Source of the DNA: a virus
Taxonomy: Duplodnaviria > Heunggongvirae > Uroviricota > Caudoviricetes
Direction: 5' to 3' (one strand)
Length of the DNA stretch: 45,158 nt
IMG/VR virus record: IMGVR_UViG_3300033067_000531
The notes beneath the pieces are model-generated. The model had not been told where the DNA came from. It saw only the letters and a list, made by a program, of their open reading frames with translations, and made no database searches. Numbering within the stretch: the first letter of the stretch is position 1; each line of letters starts with the position of its first letter. The translations under genes and the position numbers were made by a program. Shown piece by piece: positions 16,342-45,006 of this stretch.

Positions 16342-16766
16342 TAGCAGTTCCACTTTCTTAGTGATTTATTGATTCTTGAATCTGGATCATTTGCAGTCTT
16401 GGCTGAGGTCAAACGTTTCTTCATGCCAGACATTCTAGCACAGAATGATTTACGGCGATTGGCAGCCTTAGAACCTGGTTTCAACTTAGATGGTTTGGTT
16501 GTAACCGCAGTCTTTAGTTTGGAACCTGGGTTTTCTCTACGGTAAGATTCAACACCCTTTTGGTTCAAACCACCAGATTCAGACTTACCTTCTTTACGTT
16601 GCCATGCAGCAGTTTCGTCAATCTGTGTTTCTTCAGGAACACAATTTGGTACAGTTCGACCATTCTTTTCTTTTGTACCAACAGCAGTATAACCTTTCCA
16701 ACAAGCTTTCTTTAGTTCACCGGTTGGTTTTTTTACTTCATTAATAAATTCTTTAAATGATTTCAT
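16341..16766 (-). CDS. basic putative internal head protein
   Basis: MKSFKEFINE N-terminus; CWKGY...VPNCV and RRKSFCARM modules. Confidence 0.7.
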   Translation of the reverse strand: MKSFKEFINEVKKPTGELKKACWKGYTAVGTKEKNGRTVPNCVPEETQIDETAAWQRKEGKSESGGLNQKGVESYRRENPGSKLKTAVTTKPSKLKPGSKAANRRKSFCARMSGMKKRLTSAKTANDPDSRINKSLRKWNC

Positions 16767-17149
16767 ATGCTTACCAAGACCTTTGCTACTTCTTCGTTAA
16801 ATTCTATGTCACGTGAATATATGTTTTTACCATTAATACCATAGATGGCATCAGGCATAAGATTCAAATACGCCAGAAACGTTTTGAGTATATCATAGTC
16901 ACGTTCATCTATTTTATAGAACAATATTCTCGATGTTGCTTCCGTACCAAAAACATTGTTCAATAGAATGATGTGATTGAGAATTAAGCGTTCCTTTAGT
17001 GACTTGGTCACTTTATATCTTCTGAATAGTCTCTTTAGATACTTGGTACGCTTAATGTCTCCTTCGAACTCAGACACAATACAATGTGGCGAATTATACG
17101 CTTTCATCGCATACATTATAAAATTGTCGTCATTCAAATCATCAAACAT
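16763..17149 (-). CDS. conserved T4-like hypothetical protein
   Basis: KYLKRLF...LKERLILNHIILLNNVFG motif. Confidence 0.75.
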   Translation of the reverse strand: MFDDLNDDNFIMYAMKAYNSPHCIVSEFEGDIKRTKYLKRLFRRYKVTKSLKERLILNHIILLNNVFGTEATSRILFYKIDERDYDILKTFLAYLNLMPDAIYGINGKNIYSRDIEFNEEVAKVLVSI

Positions 17150-17901: not shown

Positions 17902-19656
17902 TTAAACGCTTTTTTGCGGCTTTTTCGTTTTCATCATTGGATCAATTTCAATGGTGTCACGGGGTTCGCCAGTCAGTGTCTTACCACCTTGTAGTACCGC
18001 AGCTGCCTGTGGTGCTTCTCTAGTGGAATCCATTGCCAATTTTAAGACTTTTGGTCTTTTTAGTCCTGCAACAGATTTGTCTTCCTTTTCATGGTCGTAC
18101 ATTTCTTCTGTTACTTTTTTCTTTGCACCCAACAACAACTTCACTTTCTTAGCTGTTGATTTATCAGTATCGTCTGGGTTGTTAGCACCGTCTCCAGGTT
18201 GATTACATGCAGCCATTGGTTCCAAAGATTCTTTGAAGTGTGCAATAGCTGTTGCCTTCTTACCTTTTGCAGTAAGAGTATTCACCGCAGCCTGCGCTTG
18301 GTGACCATTGGAGAACTTCTTCCATGGTTTGCCGTCAATATGTACGGTGTGTGGACGATCCATGGTAGACTTGGCCTTGAACTTCGGTTTACCATAACCT
18401 TCGTCATCCTCACGTGGTTTCTTTGCAAAACCAGTACGGTTATCATCGTAACCGTTACCTTCATCTAAGACTTCTTCGGTCTTATATAATGTTTGGTTAC
18501 GTAAAACATCAGCAACAGTACCTAAGTTTTTATGCTTGTGGTCTGTTACCTTATGGTTAGACTTTGCAACTTTAGATTGTCTCAACTGAGCAACAGTATT
18601 GAAGTGTAACTTGGTGTCATCATCACGATGCACCCAATAACCTTCCGTCACAGTTTCTTCTTTGACCTTAGTCCAGGTACCAGGACGTTCTAGGTTTGCA
18701 TAACGCTCGTGGTCTCTGAATGCTTTGCTAGCACCAGCACTATCACCTTTCTTTTGTGCATCACCAATCTTTTCAAAAGATGAATCGACCTTTTTCTTTA
18801 GTTGGTGACCACGAACAATCTTACCAATGATAGACTTTTTATTGACTTCTTCATTGGCTAAAGAATGATGGTTGATTTTCTGTTGTCTATCAACTTCTTT
18901 GGTGTTCTTTTCCAACTCTTGTTTCTTCTTTTCTGCTTGGCGCTTAGCTTCATTTCTGTTAGATTCTTCAGCATCCTTTGCCCATTTCGCACGAGTACTT
19001 GGACTAGGAAATGCACCAGCAATAGAATGTGCTTTACTTGCGGCACCTGCGGCACCAACACCAAGAATACCCTTCAAAACACCACGGCGAGAAATGTCTT
19101 CCTTGACAGTTTTCTTTTCATCATCTTTCTTATAAGATGCTTGCATACGAGCCGCAAGAGACTTCATATCAACGGGTTTCTTTTTGGCCAGTTCTTTCAC
19201 ACGTAATACTGTGGACTGATAATCACCACCATAGTTTGCTTCTTTGGCTTCCATGTATGCAGTTAGTGTTTGTAAAGAAGAAGCGTCTAATTTTTCAACT
19301 TCTTCCTTGATGATTCTGCCATACTGGTCCATTGACAAAGTGCCTTTGCCACGAAGGGTAATCAGTCGTTCTACCATCTTGTGTAGGTCGATATCAGATT
19401 TTAAATCTTCACGAGCGAACTCCAAAACACGAATCAACAATGGAATATCCATGGTGATTGTGTCTTTCTTATCTACAGCTTCCATCACATTATCATTGAT
19501 GTGGTGCATCATCCAAGTCTTAAACTGTGCAGTCTTGGAATGTGCAACCTTTTGATCCTTAGTGGCGAAATCTGGATTGATACCTCTAGATTTCAAATAA
19601 CGATTCAAAAGTGGTGTTTCTTGTAGTGTCTTTTTGATTTTATCAAATTTTGACAT
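17902..19656 (-). CDS. modular, highly charged putative internal head protein
   Basis: K/E-rich 584 aa; short modules separated by (V/L/I)xE sites. Confidence 0.65.
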   Translation of the reverse strand: MSKFDKIKKTLQETPLLNRYLKSRGINPDFATKDQKVAHSKTAQFKTWMMHHINDNVMEAVDKKDTITMDIPLLIRVLEFAREDLKSDIDLHKMVERLITLRGKGTLSMDQYGRIIKEEVEKLDASSLQTLTAYMEAKEANYGGDYQSTVLRVKELAKKKPVDMKSLAARMQASYKKDDEKKTVKEDISRRGVLKGILGVGAAGAASKAHSIAGAFPSPSTRAKWAKDAEESNRNEAKRQAEKKKQELEKNTKEVDRQQKINHHSLANEEVNKKSIIGKIVRGHQLKKKVDSSFEKIGDAQKKGDSAGASKAFRDHERYANLERPGTWTKVKEETVTEGYWVHRDDDTKLHFNTVAQLRQSKVAKSNHKVTDHKHKNLGTVADVLRNQTLYKTEEVLDEGNGYDDNRTGFAKKPREDDEGYGKPKFKAKSTMDRPHTVHIDGKPWKKFSNGHQAQAAVNTLTAKGKKATAIAHFKESLEPMAACNQPGDGANNPDDTDKSTAKKVKLLLGAKKKVTEEMYDHEKEDKSVAGLKRPKVLKLAMDSTREAPQAAAVLQGGKTLTGEPRDTIEIDPMMKTKKPQKSV

Positions 19657-19657
19657 A

Positions 19658-19843
19658 TCATTTACCTTTTTGGCCTAATTCTTTTCTTAGTTTTTTCATC
19701 GCCGTTTGTGCTAGATTTTTTGCTCTAGACATTGGTGTGTGAACCGCACCTGATTTATCCTTAACGAACTCTGGTGATGATGTTGTGTTATATGGTGGAA
19801 CAAACGGAACACTGTCGTCTTCCGGATGTTTGCCCTCATTTAC
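19658..19843 (-). CDS. 61-codon reading frame in the -1 frame of the upstream gene (candidate frameshift extension)
   Basis: VNEGKHPEDDSVPFVPP...KDKSGAVHTPMSRAKNLAQTAMKKLRKELGQKGK*; begins at A_AAA_AAG and stops just before the next ATG. Confidence 0.6.
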   Translation of the reverse strand, partial: VNEGKHPEDDSVPFVPPYNTTSSPEFVKDKSGAVHTPMSRAKNLAQTAMKKLRKELGQKGK

Positions 19844-20325
19844 TTTTTTTTTTCTTCGCCTTCTTCTTGTTCTGGCTTAGAAGTTTGTTTTCCACCACCG
19901 TAACGAGTGCCTTGTTTTACACCAGAACCACCAGATGGTTTAGGACCAGATTTAACGCTGTCTTTTGCAGCCTTAACCATATCATCCCAACCTTCTTCGA
20001 CTTGTTCTTGTTCTTCTTTACGCAACAGTTTGAAGTCTTGTGCATCAATCTTGTTGTTCTTGTTCTTGTCGATTTTGTGTTGGTCGCCTTTTAAAGCTTC
20101 ATCAACAGATTCAGTTTCTTCATTCTGTTTAGAATAATATGCACCAAGAGCCATCTTCTTACGTTGTTCTTTGGATTTACCAGCGAACTTAGGATTGTCA
20201 GAATTCACAAAGTCTTTGATCCAAGCACCTGCATCAGCATCCTTGGACATTACTTCTTGTACCAACTGTTCAAAAATTGAGTTGTTTTCGAACTGTTCTT
20301 TGAATTGTTTTAATGTTTTTGACAT
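19840..20325 (-). CDS. putative internal head protein with EF-hand-like loop
   Basis: MSKTLKQFKE N-terminus; DKNKNNKIDAQDF; ends at an A10 run. Confidence 0.7.
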   Translation of the reverse strand: MSKTLKQFKEQFENNSIFEQLVQEVMSKDADAGAWIKDFVNSDNPKFAGKSKEQRKKMALGAYYSKQNEETESVDEALKGDQHKIDKNKNNKIDAQDFKLLRKEEQEQVEEGWDDMVKAAKDSVKSGPKPSGGSGVKQGTRYGGGKQTSKPEQEEGEEKKK

Positions 20326-20326
20326 A

Positions 20327-22243
20327 TTACACCGCCTTCTTTCTTTTTCTTATTGTATCATAGGTGTATCCCACCTTGTTGTTTGGATTCTCTATTGGTT
20401 CTTTATTATCAGAACCACTCAAAGTTCCAACGAAACCAGATTCTGGTTCATTTTGGAAACCTTTTGTCTCTTTAATAGTTTTTCTGAACTTCTTAAAGTC
20501 TTTCGGTCCAGTTTCCAATGGGTTAGGTTTTGGACCACCTGCCATACCTGCGAAGTTGACAACATCAGCATTACTTGCTGTTGGACCAATCGTATCTTCG
20601 CTGTATGTTTGATTACCCAATCCAGCACCTGCAGCGGCACCTTGGCCACCTGCACGTGAGTCGTATTCTGGTCCAACGCCAGAAGGTGTGCCGACTCTAC
20701 TTGCTGAATTTGATTTGTCGCCATTTCTTAAACGTCTGATTTTGTCTGCGTCTTTACTGAAGTTGCTTTCTTTCGGCTCTGCGAACTTCTGGATGTGCGG
20801 GTTTGTTTCTTCATAGACTCCTGACCAGGCGCCACCTGAGTGTCCTTTTTCGGCTGGGTCTTTTCTGACACGGAGCGGACCTTTGATTTGGTCTGTTTCG
20901 GTTCCGATTTTTCGATTATCTGGGATGATACTGCCAAAATCTTCTGCTCGTCCTGTTGTGCCTTTGACAATTCTGGCGTTTCTACTTTCTTTGAGCCTTT
21001 GAACAAAGCTAAAATTCTTTTGAACATTGTTAGTTTCCTTAACTATAACATGATTATTATTTAGCTTACCATGGGTTTCCATCCAACGGTATGCTTCTGA
21101 CATATAGGTATTATCATCAATAAACATATTCAACTGGTGATATATTTCTGTGATATCTTCCTCTATCGTTTCCAGAGAATCACTATTATTCAAATCAATA
21201 AAATTAGTGAAATTCTGTTTATACGATTCTTTACAAGTTTGAGCCAGTTCCCACTTTTCTTGGCGAATAGACTCAGCAATCATCTTGGTCAACTTTTCAT
21301 TTCTGGATTGACTAACTTCATTTGTGGTGTTGACGAACACCATGGTTGTCGAATAACCCAATTCCTCAAGCTCTTCTTTGATTGCAATCATTCTGGTGTG
21401 GTCGTCCGCAGGTCCATTAATAACAAGTGGACCACGTTTACGGATAGCTTCTCTACGGAAATCATTAGATTGTTCCGCAAGATTTCCTTTATCCATCAAG
21501 TAGTTATACGCTTGAGTTGAAGTAATTTCTACGGCCTTTTGTTCAGCAATCGCTTCACGGATAACAATATCTTTACCCGAACCAGGACCACCAGTAACAA
21601 AGATGGCCTTGAACATACCACGATTCACGTTCTCATTCAATCCCATGCCCTTACGAACATCACGGAATAATTCCTTTGCGTGTTTCTCTGGTACGTGTTG
21701 AGGTACACCCTGTTTGAATGACACAAAATCGTTGTTCTTTGCATGTTCACGCATCTTAGAAGCGGACATACCTTCTGCACCTTCGGCATCAGGATCACGT
21801 TGTCCAGCAGATTTAACTTCAATCTTCTTAAAGTTAAACAGTTTACCTGGACCTTCTCCGTTGTACTTTTCCAACTTCTCTTGATATTCTTGTAATCTGT
21901 CTGAACCTGCAACCATCACTAAATGGTCGTGGCCAGCGGCATGTAATTTGGCAGCATGTTGCAAGAATGTTGGGTGCTCTTTGGTTGAGTGTTCAATGTT
22001 GGCACCAGGAAAGAAACGTTTTGCATGTTTCAACTTACTCTTAACATCTAGTGGATTCTTCTTAATATCAGAAGAATGTGACACTATGATGTGGTGGGGC
22101 GCATGATAGTCTTTAGCAATCTCTCTAACCCTGTTGACCAGTTTCTCGTGACCAATTGTAGGTGGATTCATACGGCCAAAGGCCATAACAACCGGCAAAT
22201 GGGTTGCTGCGTCTTCTTGTAGTTTTTCTAAAAAACTTTTCAT
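20327..22243 (-). CDS. HxGH-class nucleotidyltransferase fused to a P-loop kinase domain
   Basis: FGRMNPPTIGH, VAGSDR, MSASKMR; Walker A GGPGSGKD; MKSFLEKLQE N-terminus. Confidence 0.8.
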   Translation of the reverse strand: MKSFLEKLQEDAATHLPVVMAFGRMNPPTIGHEKLVNRVREIAKDYHAPHHIIVSHSSDIKKNPLDVKSKLKHAKRFFPGANIEHSTKEHPTFLQHAAKLHAAGHDHLVMVAGSDRLQEYQEKLEKYNGEGPGKLFNFKKIEVKSAGQRDPDAEGAEGMSASKMREHAKNNDFVSFKQGVPQHVPEKHAKELFRDVRKGMGLNENVNRGMFKAIFVTGGPGSGKDIVIREAIAEQKAVEITSTQAYNYLMDKGNLAEQSNDFRREAIRKRGPLVINGPADDHTRMIAIKEELEELGYSTTMVFVNTTNEVSQSRNEKLTKMIAESIRQEKWELAQTCKESYKQNFTNFIDLNNSDSLETIEEDITEIYHQLNMFIDDNTYMSEAYRWMETHGKLNNNHVIVKETNNVQKNFSFVQRLKESRNARIVKGTTGRAEDFGSIIPDNRKIGTETDQIKGPLRVRKDPAEKGHSGGAWSGVYEETNPHIQKFAEPKESNFSKDADKIRRLRNGDKSNSASRVGTPSGVGPEYDSRAGGQGAAAGAGLGNQTYSEDTIGPTASNADVVNFAGMAGGPKPNPLETGPKDFKKFRKTIKETKGFQNEPESGFVGTLSGSDNKEPIENPNNKVGYTYDTIRKRKKAV

Positions 22244-23430
22244 ATGTTTCTGATTCCTGCGAAATTTCTTCTGGAGAATTCTGCTCTATTAACAAACTTA
22301 TCTGTTTCCTTACCGTGGTGGAATACATATCCTTCTGGATTTGCAGCTTCACCGCCGTGTTCATGTTGAAACTCTTGGTGTTGATTCATAACATCAATCA
22401 ATACACCTTTTGCTTTTTGTAGGTGTCCATGTAACTTGAATACATTATTGTAATGTTTTCTGTTTCTATCAACCTTATCCAATTCAGACTTTAATTCTGT
22501 CTGCTTGGCCTTTTTGTTCTTTTCAACTTTAAGTTTGTCGATTTCTTTGTTTTTCTTGGATTCCAACCAGTTCTTAAAGTTGTTATGATTAGCTTCTTCA
22601 CCGGTACGAACAGTGTGGTTCATATAGGCTTCTAATGGACCACCGACACCTTGGTGTGCTTTGGTACCAGCATACATATCGTCACCATGAGTATCATGTA
22701 CTGCTTGTGCAGCTGACATATGTTTGTTGAACTGTTTTTGTTGTTCTTTACTAAAATGAACCTTTGAAGTGTCCATTCTAGGATCCACAGAGAATACATC
22801 AGGATGTTTGTTGAAATTCTCGTGGTCAACTTCATGGTGTGCGTTCAAGTTAGCAGCACTTCCATGGTATGACAGGTGAGTAACCACACCAATTTTGGCC
22901 TTACGTACAGCCAAATTGTGTTTGCCGTGGGCAGTATATGTTAGACCGGAAGGGTTTGGATGGAAGGAAACACTGTCACGGTTGGTTTTTTTATCTTCAT
23001 CCGAGAACATCATATCACCTTGGTAAACACCTTTCTTCGGTGCAACCTTTGGTAGATGTTTCAGTGCATCTTTAAGTTTTTGTGCCAATCCTGGAGCATG
23101 ACCGTGGTTCTTGTCAATATCATCAGGAGTGTAGTTAATTTTAGGTGTTTTGTTGAAAGCCGACTTAGAAGCGACAAAAAACTTACCTGTTTCTGGATGG
23201 TGACCATACACAATTGCAGGTGAACCATCATATTTTGTTGTTAGTTCCGAGGTCTTTTTGCCTTGTTTAATATGCTCTGCAGCAGCAGACAAAGACGAAA
23301 TGGCGTGCATAGCACCCTTTTCACCATTTTGTAGGTGACGGTCTTCTACGTGAGTCAAATGTTTAATTTGTCTACTGGCACCTTCTTCGGAGTCCTCTTG
23401 TTCGACTATAAACTGTTGGAACGATTTCAT
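22240..23430 (-). CDS. ligase/capping-type covalent nucleotidyltransferase-like protein
   Basis: TKYDG (motif I), YQGDMM (III-like), EGYV (IV), DKFV (V-like); MKSFQQFIVE N-terminus. Confidence 0.6.
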   Translation of the reverse strand: MKSFQQFIVEQEDSEEGASRQIKHLTHVEDRHLQNGEKGAMHAISSLSAAAEHIKQGKKTSELTTKYDGSPAIVYGHHPETGKFFVASKSAFNKTPKINYTPDDIDKNHGHAPGLAQKLKDALKHLPKVAPKKGVYQGDMMFSDEDKKTNRDSVSFHPNPSGLTYTAHGKHNLAVRKAKIGVVTHLSYHGSAANLNAHHEVDHENFNKHPDVFSVDPRMDTSKVHFSKEQQKQFNKHMSAAQAVHDTHGDDMYAGTKAHQGVGGPLEAYMNHTVRTGEEANHNNFKNWLESKKNKEIDKLKVEKNKKAKQTELKSELDKVDRNRKHYNNVFKLHGHLQKAKGVLIDVMNQHQEFQHEHGGEAANPEGYVFHHGKETDKFVNRAEFSRRNFAGIRNI

Positions 23431-39096: not shown

Positions 39097-39173
39097 TGGT
39101 TGCAATGGCTGGATTCGAACCAACGACCTCCGAGGGTATGAACCTGGTGAGATGACCTCTTCTCTACACTGCT
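39097..39173 (-). tRNA. tRNA-Met(CAT), initiator-like
   Basis: Cloverleaf, CAT anticodon, 1:72 mismatch, encoded CCA. Confidence 0.75.
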
Positions 39174-39180
39174 ATAAAAA

Positions 39181-39249
39181 TGGAGCGGCGATACTGATTC
39201 TCACAGTAGTCACGGGAGGGCATCCACGTGACGTTATTACGTTCGCCGC
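39181..39249 (-). ncRNA. atypical tRNA-Gly-like RNA
   Basis: Acceptor GCGGCGA/TCGCCGC-T-CCA; 5-bp arm with TGAGAAT loop; long arm with TGCCC loop; no normal D arm. Confidence 0.65.
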
Positions 39250-39256
39250 ATAAACT

Positions 39257-39330
39257 TGGAGCGGGATAAGAGAATCGAACTCTTAACCGGAGATTGGAAA
39301 TCTACTGTTTTACCATTAAACTAATCCCGC
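39257..39330 (-). tRNA. tRNA-Gly(TCC)
   Basis: Cloverleaf, TT-TCC-AA loop, U73, CCA. Confidence 0.93.
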
Positions 39331-39466
39331 ATACATCTATATATACATCATTTTGAAATGTACTATCTACAACACAAGCATGTGGGAAGCCTGTGCTTGA
39401 TAGTTCGTCACACCACCAACGCCTTAACATTTCAAAATGAGGACTCTTTCGAATCCTCATAAACCA

Positions 39467-40912
39467 TTACAACACTTTGTAACGGTCGTCCATGATGGTT
39501 TTAAGCATCACGGCTTCTGGAGTGAAGGTTTCGATATCACCCGCAAGCATTGGCTTAACCACTGCTGGAGAGAAACCAGAAACCATTGCAACACCAGACT
39601 TGTTGAACTTAACTGGAGCGTTTCCATAAGAAGCGTTCAAGTTCCAGAATACCACACGTGGCATTTCGTAACCTGCTTCTGCATACTTACGTGCAATCAT
39701 TTGGATTGCGCTTTCGTCATATTCAACACCTTGGTCGAATTGCATGTCAGACAAGATTAACAATACCTTAGGCATTTCGTCTTGTGCAACATTACCCTTA
39801 CGAGCAACTTCCAAAATCTTGTCAAATGCACGGTGCAAGTTGGTGTTAGCCACTTCGCCAGTGTTCATTTGGGCAATCTTTTGGTTGATGTTACCCTTCA
39901 AGTTAACCAATTGTGGGTTACGGCTGAAAGTCAAGAAAGTGTCCTTGAACTTACCAGTGTTCTTGTCAGCAAGGTACAATCCCAAAGAGATTGCAACGTC
40001 CAAACAAGACAACCCAGACTTTGAACCATGTCCGCCAGCAGCGCAGGTCATAGAACCAGAGGAGTCAACCAATGGTAGAATGTCTGCATCACCAACGTAG
40101 TTTGGCAAAGCGTCCCATTGTGCTTGGATCAAGTCCAATTCGGTCTTGTCCCAATTCATTGAACGACCATATCCAGTAGAGATACGACCCTTCAATACAT
40201 CGTAAGGGAAAACTGCCGAAGCGTTTACCTTTACTTCAACTGAACGTTCAGCCACTGGCTTCACTAATTCAGCAACGTATTGTGCATACAATGGAGTGTT
40301 GCGGTTGAAAGCCTTTTTGTAACGGGATGCCGCTACGGAAGGCACGTGTGAAAAGTTGATTGAGTTCCAATCCTTTGCACACATTTGGGTTTCAACAACC
40401 TTGGTCATTTCAACCAAGGACTTACGATAGAACTTTGGTGACATTCCGAAGAACGCACGGATTTCTGCCGCAACTTTACCCTTGCGTGGAGTCCACTTTG
40501 CTGCCAAACCATTACGTTCACGCAGCGCATCACCTAACATGGTGTATGCATGAGACTTCATCACATCAGTGTTGAAAACGAAGATATCGTCCCAACGACC
40601 TAATTCTGGCACTTTAGCCAATAGAGCCTTACAGGCTTCTACATCAGTTTTTTCCAAATAACGAAGGATGTTACGGAAAGTTTCACGTTCACCAGCACCA
40701 CCACGAACGTCACGTACCCATGCAGCAACACGTAATGCTAAAGCACGGTCTTGAACGAACGCAGCAACAAAAGCTGGAGTGATATCTTTACCACGGGAGG
40801 CACCGATATTGTAGAACAAATCCACAACTGCATTAGAAGTGGACTTTAAAGCCTTCATACCGTTAGTGGTACGAGCTTCTTGGTTAACAACGGCATTTAC
40901 AAAAGTGTTCAT
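39467..40912 (-). CDS. Ro60/TROVE-like protein (DUF2828-type) with C-terminal vWA domain
   Basis: RDVRGGAGER, GRWDD, AAKWTPR, VPSVA, MIDAS DSSGSM, LSDMQFD, VFWNL; GAAGGA RBS before ATG 40912 (481 aa). Confidence 0.8.
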   Translation of the reverse strand: MNTFVNAVVNQEARTTNGMKALKSTSNAVVDLFYNIGASRGKDITPAFVAAFVQDRALALRVAAWVRDVRGGAGERETFRNILRYLEKTDVEACKALLAKVPELGRWDDIFVFNTDVMKSHAYTMLGDALRERNGLAAKWTPRKGKVAAEIRAFFGMSPKFYRKSLVEMTKVVETQMCAKDWNSINFSHVPSVAASRYKKAFNRNTPLYAQYVAELVKPVAERSVEVKVNASAVFPYDVLKGRISTGYGRSMNWDKTELDLIQAQWDALPNYVGDADILPLVDSSGSMTCAAGGHGSKSGLSCLDVAISLGLYLADKNTGKFKDTFLTFSRNPQLVNLKGNINQKIAQMNTGEVANTNLHRAFDKILEVARKGNVAQDEMPKVLLILSDMQFDQGVEYDESAIQMIARKYAEAGYEMPRVVFWNLNASYGNAPVKFNKSGVAMVSGFSPAVVKPMLAGDIETFTPEAVMLKTIMDDRYKVL

Positions 40913-40934
40913 AATTAAATTTCCTTCAAAAAAC

Positions 40935-41129
40935 TGGATGATTGGAGAACGTAACTTATTTTCTGGTCGCCTCCTGGTTATCTCCACGACCCTATTCAGT
41001 AATCGCCACTGAAACCGATTCCATATTCAACGGACACTATTTGATATTCTATCAACACTATACCATATTTCAGGTCTTTCGTAGTATCAGAGTTTCCTCT
41101 GTTTGTTAATTTTCTGCTGAATTCATCCA
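40935..41129 (-). ncRNA. scaffold RNA copy A (195 nt, multi-hairpin cargo)
   Basis: TGGATGA-ATT-CAGCA...TCATCCA-GTTTTT. Confidence 0.65.
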
Positions 41130-41139
41130 TTAAAACAAC

Positions 41140-41303
41140 AGGTAAGCTTCCTACTTTTTGTTTACAGTGAGAATATCGAAACTCACCTCTCTGAACTTAT
41201 TTCAGTAGTAGACTTCAACGCACTCGGTCACGACTCCGTGCTCCATCTATCGCTACCATAAGGACTCAGAACGACAGTTATTAATTGCTGCTGTAACTTA
41301 CCT
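41140..41303 (-). ncRNA. scaffold RNA copy B (164 nt)
   Basis: AGGTAAG-TTA-CAGCA...CTTACCT-GTTGTTT. Confidence 0.65.
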
Positions 41304-41337
41304 AAAAACTTATTCAATGTTTCATAACAAAGATGTT

Positions 41338-41390
41338 ATTATATCATTAAAAACTTGTAGAGTCAATAGTCATGTTGCAGGATTGCAACA
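41338..41390 (-). promoter_or_regulatory. sigma70-type promoter with upstream palindrome, reading into RNAs B and A and the Ro60-like gene
   Basis: TTGACT-N17-TATAAT with TGn (41338-41366); TGTTGCA-ggat-TGCAACA at 41373-41390. Confidence 0.85.
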
Positions 41391-41397
41391 TATTTTT

Positions 41398-41471
41398 TGG
41401 TGCCCCATGAGAGAATCGAACTCCCATCCTCGGATTACAAAACCGATGTTCTGCCATTTAACTAATGGGGC
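41398..41471 (-). tRNA. tRNA-Thr(TGT)
   Basis: Cloverleaf, TT-TGT-AA, CCA. Confidence 0.93.
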
Positions 41472-41479
41472 AAAAAATT

Positions 41480-41553
41480 TGGAGCGGGTACCGAGAATCG
41501 AACTCGGAAATAAACCTTGGCAAGGTTTCAGGTTACCTTTACATCATACCCGC
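41480..41553 (-). tRNA. tRNA-Gly(GCC)
   Basis: Cloverleaf, TT-GCC-AA, U73, CCA. Confidence 0.93.
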
Positions 41554-41562
41554 ATATAACTT

Positions 41563-41591
41563 ATTATATATCAAAAATAATCTCTTGGCAA
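41563..41591 (-). promoter_or_regulatory. sigma70-type promoter within the tRNA array
   Basis: TTGCCA-N17-TATAAT, AT-rich upstream. Confidence 0.75.
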
Positions 41592-41621
41592 CAGCCTTTT
41601 TAAAATTATTTTTGGTATATT

Positions 41622-41707
41622 TGGTACGGCCACCCGGACTTGAACCGGGACGCACTAAGGCGGGAGATTTTAAGTCTCCTGTGTACTACCAATTTCACCA
41701 TGGCCGC
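41622..41707 (-). tRNA. tRNA-Leu(TAA)
   Basis: Long variable arm, CT-TAA-AA, CCA. Confidence 0.93.
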
Positions 41708-41712
41708 ATATC

Positions 41713-41787
41713 TGGTCCGGCGTAGAGGAATCGAACCTCTATCAGAAGGGTAGAAGCCTACTGTATTATCCATTATACTAACGCCAG
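41713..41787 (-). tRNA. tRNA-Arg(TCT)
   Basis: Cloverleaf, CT-TCT-AC, CCA. Confidence 0.9.
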
Positions 41788-41793
41788 ATTGTT

Positions 41794-41870
41794 TGGTGCC
41801 CTCTGTGAGATTCGAACTCACACTGTATGGCTTCTAAGACCATCGCCTCTACCAATTGCGCTAAGAGGGC
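41794..41870 (-). tRNA. tRNA-Leu(TAG), short variable loop
   Basis: CT-TAG-AA loop, A73, CCA, 77 nt. Confidence 0.88.
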
Positions 41871-41977
41871 ATAAATATTTTACATGAAAAAAGACAACGA
41901 TTACTATCTTAAAGAACTGTGGCAAATTGCACAACAGTATCCTTATATAGAAACCAAATTCTCTACAACAACTAAGG

Positions 41978-42006
41978 ATTATACACCATCCTACCCTAAA
42001 AGGCAA
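41978..42006 (-). promoter_or_regulatory. sigma70-type promoter within the tRNA array
   Basis: TTGCCT-N17-TATAAT. Confidence 0.65.
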
Positions 42007-42039
42007 GAGCTAGAATTTAAACCTTTAGTATTAAAAAAG

Positions 42040-42113
42040 TGGTGCTCTCGCCGAGAATCAAACTCGGGTAACATCCGTACCAAGGATGTGTAATGTCACT
42101 ATACGACAAGAGC
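42040..42113 (-). tRNA. tRNA-Thr(GGT)
   Basis: TT-GGT-AC loop; T-loop TTTGATT; CCA. Confidence 0.88.
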
Positions 42114-42119
42114 AATAAC

Positions 42120-42223
42120 AGGATGCAGTGCTAAAGACCGGGACTCGAACCCAATGCACACCCCCAGCGGGCCGGCCTGCCGAAGTTTTGGAGGCAGTTG
42201 TTTTATGTTGCAGTATTCATCCT
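42120..42223 (-). ncRNA. scaffold RNA copy C (GC-rich cargo with T-arm)
   Basis: AGGATGA-ATA-CTGCAA...GGG-TTCGAGT-CCC...CATCCT-GTTATT. Confidence 0.6.
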
Positions 42224-42231
42224 TAAAAGGG

Positions 42232-42376
42232 TTCCGAACGACCAACTATCTTTCTCAAGGACTCATTGGCTTGTCTCGTATAGGAGAGTTTAACTACCTT
42301 GTGTTGCTACTGGTGTGTCAGTCTCAAGAATAGGGACCTAGCGCACAAGGGACTCAATCCAAACGTCTAGTTCGAA
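42232..42376 (-). ncRNA. putative structured RNA of unknown class
   Basis: Ends pair (CGAAC-TA-GAC/GTC-GTTCG); internal CTTGTG/CACAAG helix; no ORF. Confidence 0.45.
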
Positions 42377-42380
42377 ATTT

Positions 42381-42455
42381 TGGTGGGTCATCAGAGAATC
42401 AAACTCTGTTCTTCCGGTTAAGAGCCGGTTGCTTCATCACTTAAGCTTATAACCC
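42381..42455 (-). tRNA. tRNA-Lys(CTT)
   Basis: CT-CTT-AA loop; T-loop TTTGATT; CCA. Confidence 0.9.
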
Positions 42456-42533
42456 ATATAGAAACACACTAGCTTGCAAGACTACTATTAACCCCACGGG
42501 TACGCCGCTGTTAATAGTCAGTGTGTTTTTATA

Positions 42534-42610
42534 TGGTGCCCACGGCGAGATTCGAACTCGCACTGTACAGGTTTTGAATCTGTTGCCTCTACCAATTGCG
42601 CTACGGGGGC
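42534..42610 (-). tRNA. tRNA-Leu(CAA), short variable loop
   Basis: TT-CAA-AA loop; body paralogous to tRNA-Leu(TAG). Confidence 0.88.
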
Positions 42611-42620
42611 ATAAAATAAC

Positions 42621-42732
42621 AGGATACCTTTTTCGTTGCTCTACCAATTGAGCTAATCTTCCATCAGAAAGATACAGGAATCGAACCTGCGACACACGGC
42701 TTTGAATGCTATGTAGTTGCTGCAAGTATCCT
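42621..42732 (-). ncRNA. scaffold RNA copy D: YrlA-like RNA with circularly permuted tRNA domain
   Basis: AGGATAC-TTG-CAGCAA...T arm, loop-closed 7-bp acceptor stem, D arm...GTATCCT-GTTATTT. Confidence 0.8.
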
Positions 42733-42741
42733 TAAAATAAC

Positions 42742-42839
42742 AGGTTAGTTTTTTTGCAGTGGGAATTGAACCCACAAGGTTTCATTAAAAGTGAAATTGC
42801 CAACCATTGGCGTTGCTTGATTTTTGCTGAACCTAACCT
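42742..42839 (-). ncRNA. scaffold RNA copy E: tRNA-Lys(TTT)-like cargo without CCA
   Basis: AGGTTAG-GTT-CAGCAA...D-like arm, TTTCA-CTTTTAA-TGAAA, GTGGG-TTCAATT-CCCAC...CTAACCT-GTTATTT. Confidence 0.75.
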
Positions 42840-42844
42840 TTAAC

Positions 42845-42920
42845 TGGTGCCACAAACTGGACTCGAACCAGTAACACATGGATTTTCAATCCACCGCTCT
42901 ACCATTGGAGCTACTGCGGC
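42845..42920 (-). tRNA. tRNA-Phe(GAA)
   Basis: Cloverleaf, TT-GAA-AA, CCA. Confidence 0.93.
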
Positions 42921-42930
42921 ATAAAATAAA

Positions 42931-43098
42931 TTTGTAAGTAGTTCCGCCTCGTCCATTCGGAACCATTTCGGTTGGTGTACGTTCAACTTAGAGGTACGTA
43001 GTAATAGATGTTACTTGCCAGTTGCCATGTTGTCGGACTCGAACCGTTAGCTCACAAAGTTTTCGAGGCTTTGCTTTCACATCATCTACACTTACAAA
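42931..43098 (-). ncRNA. putative structured RNA with 9-bp terminal stem and T-loop
   Basis: TTTGTAAGT...ACTTACAAA ends; internal CGG-TTCGAGT-CCG. Confidence 0.55.
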
Positions 43099-43101
43099 AC
43101 T

Positions 43102-43175
43102 TGGTACCTCGTGAAAGAATCGAACTTTCTTATCCCACTTGTAAGGAGGGTGTTCTACCATTAAACTAACGAGGC
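43102..43175 (-). tRNA. tRNA-Val(TAC)
   Basis: CT-TAC-AA loop, CCA. Confidence 0.9.
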
Positions 43176-43188
43176 ATAAAATTTACTT

Positions 43189-43263
43189 TGGGCAGGAATA
43201 CCAGGATCGAACTGGTGATAACGGAATCACAACCCGTGGTTTTACCACTAAACTAATTCCTGC
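43189..43263 (-). tRNA. tRNA-His(GTG)
   Basis: TT-GTG-AT loop; G-1:C73; CCA. Confidence 0.92.
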
Positions 43264-43313
43264 CCAAAGTAAACTTTGGAATTTTCAACCGTGTTTATTC
43301 ACGGGGGTCTGTA

Positions 43314-43802
43314 TTATACACCAAGTGCTTCTTGTTCGGCAAGAATCCGTTTCAAACGGTCAGCACAGAACGAAGCAGCAGGTGCATCAGGTTTAACCAT
43401 AGGTGTCATGTTACATGTACCTTTGATATAACCGATAGCTTGTTGCACAACGCATGAAGAACCATGTAGGTCGGATTTGTTCAAGTCCAAATGAACTTCA
43501 ACGTGTCTATCTTCTAATACGTCCTGCATTTCCTGGAACAATTCTGATACCTTGTAAACTTCGGTCATCAGTCTCATTGCAGGTTTGCTTTTCTTGTGGT
43601 CATAGTCAATTTCACGTTGAACATAACCGAAAATCTTACAACCATGGCGGCCATTGATATGAACAACGACAGCCAAAGCATAATCGGCATACCAGACACC
43701 GTTTACTCTGATACGTTCAGAGTCGGCACCAAGGTAAACCTTTGTATCTGAACCTTGGTTCAAGATAAAATCTTTAACTTCTTGAATGTCGAATTTACTC
43801 AT
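43314..43802 (-). CDS. RNase H-like YkuK/DUF458-family protein
   Basis: VYLGADS, AVVVH...G, RLMTEV, EVHLDLN, KPDAPAASFCADR; AAGGTG RBS. Confidence 0.8.
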   Translation of the reverse strand: MSKFDIQEVKDFILNQGSDTKVYLGADSERIRVNGVWYADYALAVVVHINGRHGCKIFGYVQREIDYDHKKSKPAMRLMTEVYKVSELFQEMQDVLEDRHVEVHLDLNKSDLHGSSCVVQQAIGYIKGTCNMTPMVKPDAPAASFCADRLKRILAEQEALGV

Positions 43803-43824
43803 ATCAATCACCTTTCTATAAAAA

Positions 43825-43898
43825 TGGCACCTCGTGAGAGAATCGAACTCCCGCAAACGGACTTGGAAACCGTTGTGCTACCATTACACTAACGAGGC
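43825..43898 (-). tRNA. tRNA-Trp(CCA)
   Basis: TT-CCA-AG loop, G73, U31.U39 mismatch. Confidence 0.8.
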
Positions 43899-43909
43899 AT
43901 ATAAACAAC

Positions 43910-43970
43910 AGGATAATTTTTGCGTTTTCAATTACAAGTTGAATGCTTTTTGATTTGCTGAACTTATCCT
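43910..43970 (-). ncRNA. scaffold RNA copy F: lone Thr(TGT) anticodon stem-loop cargo
   Basis: AGGATAA-GTT-CAGCAA...TTCAA-CTTGTAA-TTGAA...TTATCCT-GTTGTTT. Confidence 0.7.
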
Positions 43971-43975
43971 AAAAC

Positions 43976-44054
43976 TGGCTCCGTGTGAGGGAATCGAACC
44001 CACCTAATCATTGATTAACAGTCAAGTCCTTGCACCTTGCTTGGATTTCACGGA
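43976..44054 (-). tRNA. tRNA-Asn(GTT), atypical D arm
   Basis: CT-GTT-AA loop, G73, CCA. Confidence 0.8.
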
Positions 44055-44140
44055 ATAAAATTGTGTAAGTTCCTACTAGCACCCATCGTTACTTACAACC
44101 GTTGAGCAGCCATGCATCGAAACAAGACTGCTATTTGCTC

Positions 44141-44214
44141 TGGTACCCCCAACAAGAATTGAACTTGTGATAATCGCTTATCAAGCGAACGTTATACCAT
44201 TTAACTATAGGGGC
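44141..44214 (-). tRNA. tRNA-Ile(GAT)
   Basis: TT-GAT-AA loop, CCA. Confidence 0.9.
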
Positions 44215-44222
44215 ATAAATTT

Positions 44223-44297
44223 TGGAGGGCAATAAGAGAATCAAACTCCTATTTCAAGGTTCGTAGCCTCGTGTATTATTCATTATACGAATTGCCC
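44223..44297 (-). tRNA. tRNA-Arg(ACG)
   Basis: CT-ACG-AA loop; T-loop TTTGATT; CCA. Confidence 0.88.
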
Positions 44298-44303
44298 ATA
44301 AAT

Positions 44304-44379
44304 TGGTAGTTCAGGTGAGACTCAAACTCACGATAGACACCGTATGAAGGTGTTGCATTAGTCGCTATGCTACTGAACC
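44304..44379 (-). tRNA. tRNA(CAT), elongator Met or Ile2
   Basis: TT-CAT-AC loop; T-loop TTTGAGT; CCA. Confidence 0.82.
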
Positions 44380-44507
44380 ATTTTAGAAACACTCTGCCGA
44401 GTCCTTGAATCTCATGTTGACCCTACTTCCTGGCAACTTTTACCCTTATATCCGGATTCAAGGTTACTCGATGTGCTCCAGTGTAGTCAATCAAAGTGTT
44501 TTTAAAA

Positions 44508-44582
44508 TGGTGGAGGCCGAGGGAATTGAACCCTTCTAGACACGATCCTTGCAAGGGAACGCCGTAGCCCACTACTGCCCCC
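44508..44582 (-). tRNA. tRNA-Ala(TGC), atypical minimal D arm
   Basis: CT-TGC-AA loop, G3.U70, A73; D arm GTAG-TGGG-CTAC. Confidence 0.75.
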
Positions 44583-44706
44583 ATTTTATCAAAACACAAA
44601 GGCAATACTAGGACGCTACTTGCGTTGAGTCCGTTCAAACCTATGTGCTTCAAAAAAATAACTGATTATTTGTCTCATTATACGCCATCAGTTACGGCGA
44701 GGCTCA

Positions 44707-44780
44707 TGGTCAGGGTAGCAGGAATCGAACCTGCGCTACAAGAGTCCAAGACTCGGCGACTACCATTATCATATACCCTG
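44707..44780 (-). tRNA. tRNA-Pro(TGG)
   Basis: CT-TGG-AC loop, C1-G72, A73. Confidence 0.78.
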
Positions 44781-44785
44781 AAAAA

Positions 44786-44861
44786 TGGTCTCCATAGAAG
44801 GATTTGAACCTTCACCACATGCTCCCAAAGCATGGACGCTACCAGGTTACGCCATACGGAG
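44786..44861 (-). tRNA. tRNA-Pro(TGG)
   Basis: CATGC-TTTGGGA-GCATG, C1-G72, A73. Confidence 0.9.
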
Positions 44862-44870
44862 ATAAACAAC

Positions 44871-44925
44871 AGGATACGCTTTTTTTCAACCAATAGAAAA
44901 GTTTTGAAATTGCTGAATGTATCCT
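44871..44925 (-). ncRNA. scaffold RNA copy G (minimal, 55 nt)
   Basis: AGGATAC-ATT-CAGCAA...GTATCCT-GTTGTTT. Confidence 0.7.
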
Positions 44926-44931
44926 AAAACT

Positions 44932-45006
44932 TGGCTCCCCAGACACGGATCGAACGTGTGACCAAACGATTAACAGTCGTTTGCTCTACCTCTGAGCTAC
45001 TGGGGA
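44932..45006 (-). tRNA. tRNA-Asn(GTT)
   Basis: Cloverleaf, CT-GTT-AA, G73, CCA. Confidence 0.93.

Follow-up and report, generated by a model that had tools for sequence, protein, structure and literature searches.

A recurrent frame break at a conserved A10 tract marks a candidate programmed -1 recoding site in a modular phage gene

The locus and its reading frames

The window, by which we mean the whole 45,158-nt stretch of viral DNA analysed here, carries on its minus strand a 161-aa gene (19840-20325) whose last codons are GAA GAA AAA AAA AAG TAA. A sequence-only reading of this DNA had pointed to an in-frame A_AAA_AAG heptamer at the stop codon and to a start-less 61-codon frame that fills the gap up to the next ATG, and had proposed that a -1 shift joins the two. 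Both sightings are correct: the heptamer occupies 19849-19843, the TAA stop (19842-19840) lies directly 3' of it, the -1 frame runs from 19843 to 19661 and terminates at a TGA (19660-19658), and the next ATG stands at 19656. The features of the locus are these:

19840-20325, minus strand: 0-frame ORF for the short product, 161 aa plus TAA, from the ORF list and its translation
19859-19863, minus strand: GAAGG, Shine-Dalgarno-like, 9 nt 5' of the heptamer; absent upstream of the run in L148, L057, L023 and in a second gene family (see below)
19844-19853, minus strand: tract of exactly 10 A (T10 on the plus strand), a run prone to RNA-polymerase slippage that holds the candidate ribosomal shift site
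19843-19849, minus strand: A_AAA_AAG heptamer in phase with the 0 frame, the phase being identical in 7 of 7 frame-split members of the family
19792-19839, minus strand: predicted RNA hairpin, core stem 19797-19834, minimum free energy (MFE) -17.7 kcal/mol, z -3.73
19661-19843, minus strand: -1 frame extension of 61 codons, VNEGK...HTPMSRAK...GQKGK, a conserved C-terminal module reached only through a -1 shift
17902-19656, minus strand: next gene, 584 aa, its ATG at 19656 lying 2 nt past the -1 frame stop

The apparent 180-nt gap between the 161-aa and 584-aa ORFs is occupied by the extension, and the layout is the same in L356, a contig from an ENA assembly (ERZ4209298) that represents a near-identical phage with few substitutions. 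A search of the gap found no minus-strand terminator or promoter that would account for it, and a scan of the 61 codons found no ATG, GTG or TTG in the -1 frame ahead of codon 38. Apart from the A10 tract, no homopolymer of the window exceeds 7 nt; from composition, about 3.7 T-runs of at least 8 would be expected.

A Shine-Dalgarno-like stimulator about 10 nt upstream is optional for -1 signals of the dnaX/IS3 type. The GAAGG that had been noticed ahead of the site is present at 19863-19859, but it is missing from other frame-split relatives and so is not a conserved stimulator; judged by this distribution, it is probably incidental. The window also contains 20 tRNA genes in an array (39097-45006, minus strand), inside or just past which it ends. 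None of the 20 is a lysine tRNA gene, and therefore no phage tRNA in the window bears on the decoding of AAG.

The extension is the C-terminal module of one protein

A search of IMG/VR with the 161-aa protein returned 72 related loci. In this first survey, 13 of the 15 loci carrying both parts had the module and the upstream modules in a single ORF. A second survey, seeded with the C-terminal module alone, yielded 80 loci, of which 78 were in frame with a long upstream ORF, one (L148) was frame-split and one was cut by the contig end. The junction in the in-frame relatives reads ...KKKVNEGK..., ...KKKVSEGK... or ...KKKVTEGK... (KKKVxE), and the first of these is exactly the peptide that a -1 shift would yield in the window.

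The nearest in-frame relative, L001, shares 93% identity over the module. Between the window and L001, 19 of the 24 nucleotide differences in the extension fall at third positions of the -1 frame, and the codon changes number 17 synonymous versus 4 non-synonymous; against L356 they number 2 versus 0, both substitutions in its extension being synonymous in the -1 frame. By these comparisons the -1 frame encodes part of the same protein and is under purifying selection, and the relatives strongly support the proposal that a -1 shift adds a conserved coding stretch to the C-terminus.

The TAAATG at the end of the 161-aa gene also sets an ATG directly after the stop, where a 42-codon ORF (19711-19839) opens, and one might suppose that this ORF, or the 61-codon piece by itself, is translated as a separate gene. 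What is a third position in the -1 frame is a second position in the ATG frame, so the 19 of 24 differences from L001 identify the -1 frame, and not the ATG frame, as the conserved one; the 42-codon ORF was rejected for this reason. The -1 frame, for its part, lacks a start codon ahead of codon 38, and the piece invariably forms the C-terminal end of a longer protein in the relatives. Two separate genes are thus hardly credible here.

Frame-split and in-frame relatives

L356 was found by protein search through its 160-aa protein, which ends in ...EEGEEKKK, and it carries the same G-A10-GTAAATGAGG as the window. Five divergent contigs (L148, L057, L326, L273 and L023), representing at least three further lineages, are split in like manner. 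Their sets of upstream modules differ from that of the window, and their C-terminal modules are 42-69% identical to the window's. In all five, the A10 opens at the second position of a GAA codon and is followed by G, with the module in the -1 frame and the 0-frame stop either immediate or one codon on. The A_AAA_AAG-stop and -1 frame, whose retention in related phages the sequence-only reading had proposed as a check, are therefore kept in six other contigs, and A10 with a -1 offset is found in 7 of 7 split contigs of the family, the window included.

In-frame relatives differ from this state in a consistent way. The 80-locus survey found no in-frame A10 or A11 in the window's family; instead, 16 of the 80 loci carry A9 as three AAA codons, and the other in-frame relatives have a broken run, such as AAG AAG AAA GTG. 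The uninterrupted in-frame A9 occurs in L001, L025, L155-L167, L180 and L199. Neither one-step neighbour of the in-frame A9 (A8 needing -1, A10 needing +1) was seen in the family, and what separates the window from L001 at the junction is an indel of 7 nt flanking the run rather than the length of the run. Each split lineage is closer to in-frame relatives than to the other split lineages; the split state is thus scattered among in-frame ones, and the frame state has therefore changed several times. Homologues are overwhelmingly in-frame fusions (about 80). This comes close to the uniform picture of in-frame fusions lacking a slippery site that had been named as speaking against a shift, yet the picture is not uniform, because six other contigs keep the A10 and the -1 frame and many in-frame relatives keep A9 at the same place.

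The tract also stands out on the scale of whole genomes, where long runs are mostly avoided. The complete relatives of 176 kb and 238 kb each have one A10 in the genome, and it is such a junction; those of 174 kb and 157 kb each have one A9, and it is an in-frame junction, which suggests that an A9 tract is maintained even where no shift is required. Larger relatives have a few ordinary A9 runs elsewhere in the genome. In two of them these runs were considered as further junctions and rejected, being an RBS region and ordinary in-frame KKK codons.

A search of metagenome contigs with the window-specific junction pattern gave no match, and a looser pattern gave mostly unrelated matches together with two more split relatives. 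Some IMG/VR and metagenome contigs may come from related samples, so the number of contigs should not be read as a number of independent events; independence is better judged from distinct junction contexts and divergent flanks.

Long homopolymers are classic spots for base-calling errors, and the sequence-only reading had listed such an error as an alternative, in which case the true state would be A11 or A8 and a single ORF of 222 or 221 aa. The same A10, however, is present in the independent assembly of a near-identical phage and in five divergent contigs from other samples, no relative shows the supposed in-frame A11, and the nearest in-frame relative is separated by the 7-nt indel. Moreover, A11 tracts do appear in assemblies of the second gene family described below, and those need a -1 shift too. 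We regard an assembly or sequencing error as very improbable; judged across these contexts, the frame break is real and recurrent and is no error.

The hairpin downstream of the run

A hairpin 3' of the shift site had also been noted. It is present, with none of 200 dinucleotide shuffles folding as well (these shuffles being the basis of its z-score), but its MFE register is slightly off the pairing first noted, and the spacer ahead of the core stem is 8 nt, UAAAUGAG, within the 5-9 nt that is classical for -1 signals of the dnaX/IS3 type. The hairpin is kept in L356, L146 and L147, where the stems have changed and still pair.

No significant downstream structure was found in L148, in L057/L326/L273 or in L023, that is, in three of the four split lineages of the family, and the hairpin is therefore not a general requirement. 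L146 and L147 are in-frame A9 relatives, yet they retain it; the hairpin is therefore not bound to the split state alone. In the window it is likely a stimulator of ribosomal -1 frameshifting.

The same cassette in a second gene family

Contigs with the pattern GAAG-A8-12-GTAAATGA were then sought, and 19 contigs of an unrelated gene were recovered. The cassette common to the two families consists of A10 or A11, then GTAAATGA, an 8-nt spacer and a hairpin. In the second family, an ORF of about 100 aa ends in ...DVDKDGEIEGSDLAALRAKNEEKKK-stop and is followed by a start-less -1 frame of 135-138 codons beginning VNEN..., as in L079 (2379-3118, equivalent to about 193500-194250 of G001) and in L074-L132. 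A protein survey with the downstream part found A10 or A11 splits in all relatives of at least about 63% identity, in seven different local contexts. Among the 22 scorable split loci (16 distinct junction sequences were aligned), all have A10 or A11, and all scored splits need -1 with the exception of L123. Distant relatives at 44% identity (L134-L140, about 1480-1900) are stand-alone genes that open ATG AAA AAA AAA AGT, with the A10 in frame directly after the start codon.

In L123 (1478-1581) the run is A11, the upstream ORF lies in the other off frame (+1/-2) and there is an apparent deletion in an EF-hand-like loop. Recombination or misassembly may explain this contig, or it may be one that polymerase slippage alone could rescue.

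The second-family stem-loop has about 19 pairs and the same 8-nt spacer. In the 16 aligned junctions, 84% of cells are paired, versus 33-57% when the partners are slid, and doubly changed paired cells number 24, versus 5-9 in the slid controls; two adjacent pairs show all four Y-R combinations. Single-sequence hairpin z-scores range from -2.3 to -6.2 in the split genes, versus -0.7 to -1.1 in the stand-alone relatives. On these alignments, the second-family hairpin is well supported by covariation.

In the 238-kb genome, the second-family gene is flanked by the portal gene and that of the Peptidase_S77 prohead protease, and a Gp23-type capsid gene follows downstream; this is the slot that genes 67 and 68 occupy in T4. 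The family has no significant PHROG or Pfam match. Its downstream part opens with a hydrophobic, membrane-helix-like segment.

A proposed mechanism and its competitors

The mechanism that we infer is that the A10 is a maintained programmed -1 recoding site at which ribosomal and RNA-polymerase slippage act together to give products of 161 and 222 aa; we would put the probability of this reading at about 0.5. That recoding takes place by one route or the other is very probable. Most ribosomes would read GAA GAA AAA AAA AAG and stop at TAA, giving the 161-aa form. A fraction would be shifted one base back and would read ...EEKKK-VNEGK... and 61 further codons to the TGA, giving a 222-aa form that carries the family's conserved basic C-terminal module.

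Two routes could lead to the long form. In the first, lysine tRNAs would slip in tandem by -1 on A_AAA_AAG, stimulated by the hairpin that begins 8 nt downstream and possibly helped by the adjacent stop codon as well. A -1 ribosomal shift needs just this heptamer of the X_XXY_YYZ type, with 6 A and a G, which is the best bacterial heptamer. In the second, RNA polymerase would slip on A10/T10 and add one extra A to the mRNA, so that standard translation gives the long form. A review describes efficient slippage by bacterial RNA polymerase on tracts of 9 A or T (PMC5009743), and the A10 lies above this threshold of about 9.

The mixed model is proposed because an in-phase heptamer, an adjacent stop codon and a spaced hairpin coexist with runs of at least 10 A in every split gene. 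The run is conserved beyond the heptamer: all 7 split contigs of the window's family have A10, and all 16 distinct second-family junctions have A10 or A11. Since the split relatives all keep at least 10 A though the ribosome needs the heptamer only, transcriptional slippage, which the sequence-only reading had listed as an alternative, would be at least a contributor. The ribosomal mechanism put forward there stands in part: in the window's lineage, conservation of the downstream hairpin speaks for a ribosomal share, but the retention of at least 10 A in all split relatives points to the polymerase as well.

It could also be that RNA-polymerase slippage alone makes the 222-aa form, with the hairpin incidental or serving some other purpose. 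This would fit the 10 or 11 uninterrupted A in every split member of both families, on runs long enough for efficient slippage (9 or more; PMC5009743), as well as the frequent breaking of the run in in-frame relatives that have no need to slip. It would also fit the three split lineages of the window's family without downstream structure, and L123, whose +1/-2 requirement polymerase slippage could supply and a -1 ribosomal shift could not. What it leaves unexplained is the structure: the second family has a long hairpin at a fixed 8-nt spacing, with compensatory changes, that is weaker where no shift is needed, and the window's hairpin shares the spacing, has a z of -3.73 and survives sequence change in its subclade. 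A structure 3' of the run cannot act on a polymerase that is still on the run. Furthermore, the nascent-RNA hairpin of the Roseiflexus IS630 type that might assist polymerase was looked for 5' of the run, and no consistent structure was found. We hold polymerase slippage alone to be a real possibility, though not a probable one.

In insect endosymbionts, poly-A frameshifts persist through slippage, and the break in the window's gene might likewise be a tolerated mutation beside a mutable poly-A, where unavoidable slippage supplies enough full-length protein for the lesion to persist. Most relatives manage without a frame break (about 80 are in frame), the split lineages are scattered among them and the protein is modular, with modules often gained and lost, all of which would suit such a leaky lesion. 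A tolerated lesion would not be expected to sit, in 7 of 7 split contigs, in one specific state, with A10 starting at codon position 2, then G and an early stop, while the one-step neighbours of the in-frame A9 (A8/-1 and A10/+1) are never seen. Nor does it sit well with an extension that is still under purifying selection, or with an identical cassette fixed throughout a second gene family. A tolerated frameshift is accordingly improbable in our view, and the maintained site with two slippage routes remains the reading that we prefer.

A possible two-way isoform switch

GTAAATGA encodes VNE/D in one frame, and each of its two off frames contains a stop, TAA or TGA. With A10, the 0 frame ends at the TAA and the -1 frame runs on. 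In the A9 in-frame alleles (L001/L146, L025/L147), the 0 frame runs on, and a -1 slip would meet AGT AAA TGA. The fact that these two A9 alleles keep the hairpin suggests that both types of allele make a short and a long form, and the frames suggest that A9 and A10 alleles would each yield the two forms in opposite proportions.

A wider reading, which we advance tentatively and with some doubt, is that poly-A, GTAAATGA and a hairpin after an 8-nt spacer form a portable two-way isoform switch in the capsid-interior proteins of T4-like lake phages. A slip would yield the short form in the in-frame A9 state and the long form in the A10 state, lineages would flip between the two states, and flipping between A9 and A10 would reset the amount of C-terminal peptide loaded into the head. 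The unit would have been exchanged between the window's family and the unrelated gene pair upstream of the prohead protease.

What the protein may be

The 161-aa protein comprises a DUF6321-like N-terminal module, an EF-hand-like DKNKNNKID loop and an EEGWDDM...GGSGVKQGTRYGGGKQ module. One tblastn match is annotated DUF6321, and relatives give Pfam EF-hand matches. The relatives range from 160 to more than 550 aa and are likewise modular, with DxNxN..D loops and a basic C-terminal module among their parts, which are joined by acidic linkers that end in (I/V)DE or VEE. Neither piece of the target gene has a match in PHROGs or Pfam, and no likeness in sequence or fold to a known internal or core protein was found in PHROG, Pfam or the ESM Atlas, where the model of an in-frame homologue is of low confidence (pLDDT 0.55, pTM 0.23) and has no informative neighbours. 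A search of GenBank phages revealed no close relative, matches being limited to the cytidylyltransferase gene and to a DUF6321-like stretch in cyanophages.

In T4, the protease gp21 cleaves behind L/I-x-E, and a targeting sequence of 10 residues stands at the N-terminus of the internal proteins (PMC9026906). The N-terminus of the window's protein, MSKTLKQFKEQFE, and its module borders VDE, VEE and VNE bear some resemblance to this pattern, with valine replacing L/I at several sites. The complete relatives G001 and G002 encode a gp21-type (Peptidase_S77) prohead protease, and relatives also have a Gp23 capsid protein. The window itself covers only genes of replication and nucleotide metabolism together with tRNAs, and no protease was seen in it.

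The label of internal head protein is thus drawn from the N-terminal and (I/V)xE motif resemblance and from the gp21-type protease in relatives. Because the motifs resemble those of T4 and the relatives encode such a protease, a packaged and protease-processed protein is a reasonable reading, and by analogy an internal head role for the 161/222-aa protein is plausible. The protein would probably enter the capsid, and cleavage at (I/V)xE by the prohead protease would then free the C-terminal peptide behind VNE.

The upstream neighbours in the window (20327-23430, minus strand) are a 638-aa fusion of cytidylyltransferase-like and P-loop kinase-like parts and a 396-aa protein (phrog_455) that carries a KxDG ligase-type motif. 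The N-termini of both, MKSF..., resemble the T4 capsid targeting sequence. A 128-aa protein with Pfam DUF7207 (16763-17149, minus strand; E 7e-37) is encoded in the same block of small late-looking genes.

Implications

Abundant uncultured T4-like freshwater phages thus keep the slip signal in modular proteins whose place is probably inside the capsid. Gene callers systematically truncate such genes and leave false intergenic gaps. Slippage at these sites may set the stoichiometry of head-internal components. The natural allele pairs, in-frame A9 versus split A10, with or without the hairpin, are well suited to separating ribosomal from polymerase slippage.

Comparison with known systems

Phage recoding is textbook knowledge for tail chaperones and a few capsid genes. 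To our knowledge, recoding has not been described for T4 core or internal genes, and a literature search found no description of frameshifting in prohead core or internal proteins. The mechanism of slippage on poly-A is itself already well known; it is in this class of phage gene that we found no published recoding.

Like the window's gene, the phage tail chaperone genes G/GT and T7 10A/10B are late genes in which a minority product carries a -1 C-terminal extension, presumably at a fixed stoichiometry. Unlike them, the window's gene is neither a tail chaperone nor a major capsid gene, and its shift site is a long A-run.

The T4 core and internal proteins (gp67, gp68, IPI-III, Alt; PMC9026906) offer a parallel of another kind. 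The relatives of the window are T4-like, with Gp23 and Peptidase_S77, and the modules of the window's protein are bounded by (I/V)xE, with VNE after the junction. The second cassette family lies between portal and protease, as genes 67 and 68 do in T4. The difference is that the window's protein has no sequence-family match to any T4 protein.

Of the transcriptional systems, Thermus thermophilus dnaX and Shigella spa13/mxiE undergo programmed slippage on runs of the A9/T9 type (PMC5009743). As in the window, a homopolymer of at least 9 stands at the end of the short ORF, one added mRNA base gives the long form, and the run length is conserved beyond ribosomal need. The window differs in adding a conserved hairpin at a spacing of the frameshift type. 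Citrobacter rodentium tssM is reported to undergo transcriptional frameshifting on a poly-A tract that interrupts the gene, with short and long variants both made; it differs in being a bacterial secretion gene (PMC4256274).

The closest ribosomal counterpart is E. coli dnaX (tau/gamma), which has the identical in-phase heptamer, an upstream SD, a stable stem-loop a few nucleotides downstream and a stop near the shift site, and which makes two products in a set ratio from one gene. There the shift truncates, whereas in the window it would extend; the polarity is the same as in the in-frame A9 relatives L146 and L147, where a -1 slip would truncate. The window further differs in its run of 10 A, in an SD-like element that is not conserved, and in encoding a phage structural-type protein rather than a replicase subunit. 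By analogy, then, the signal works like that of E. coli dnaX in its heptamer and hairpin, and like those of Thermus dnaX and Shigella spa13 in its long A-run.
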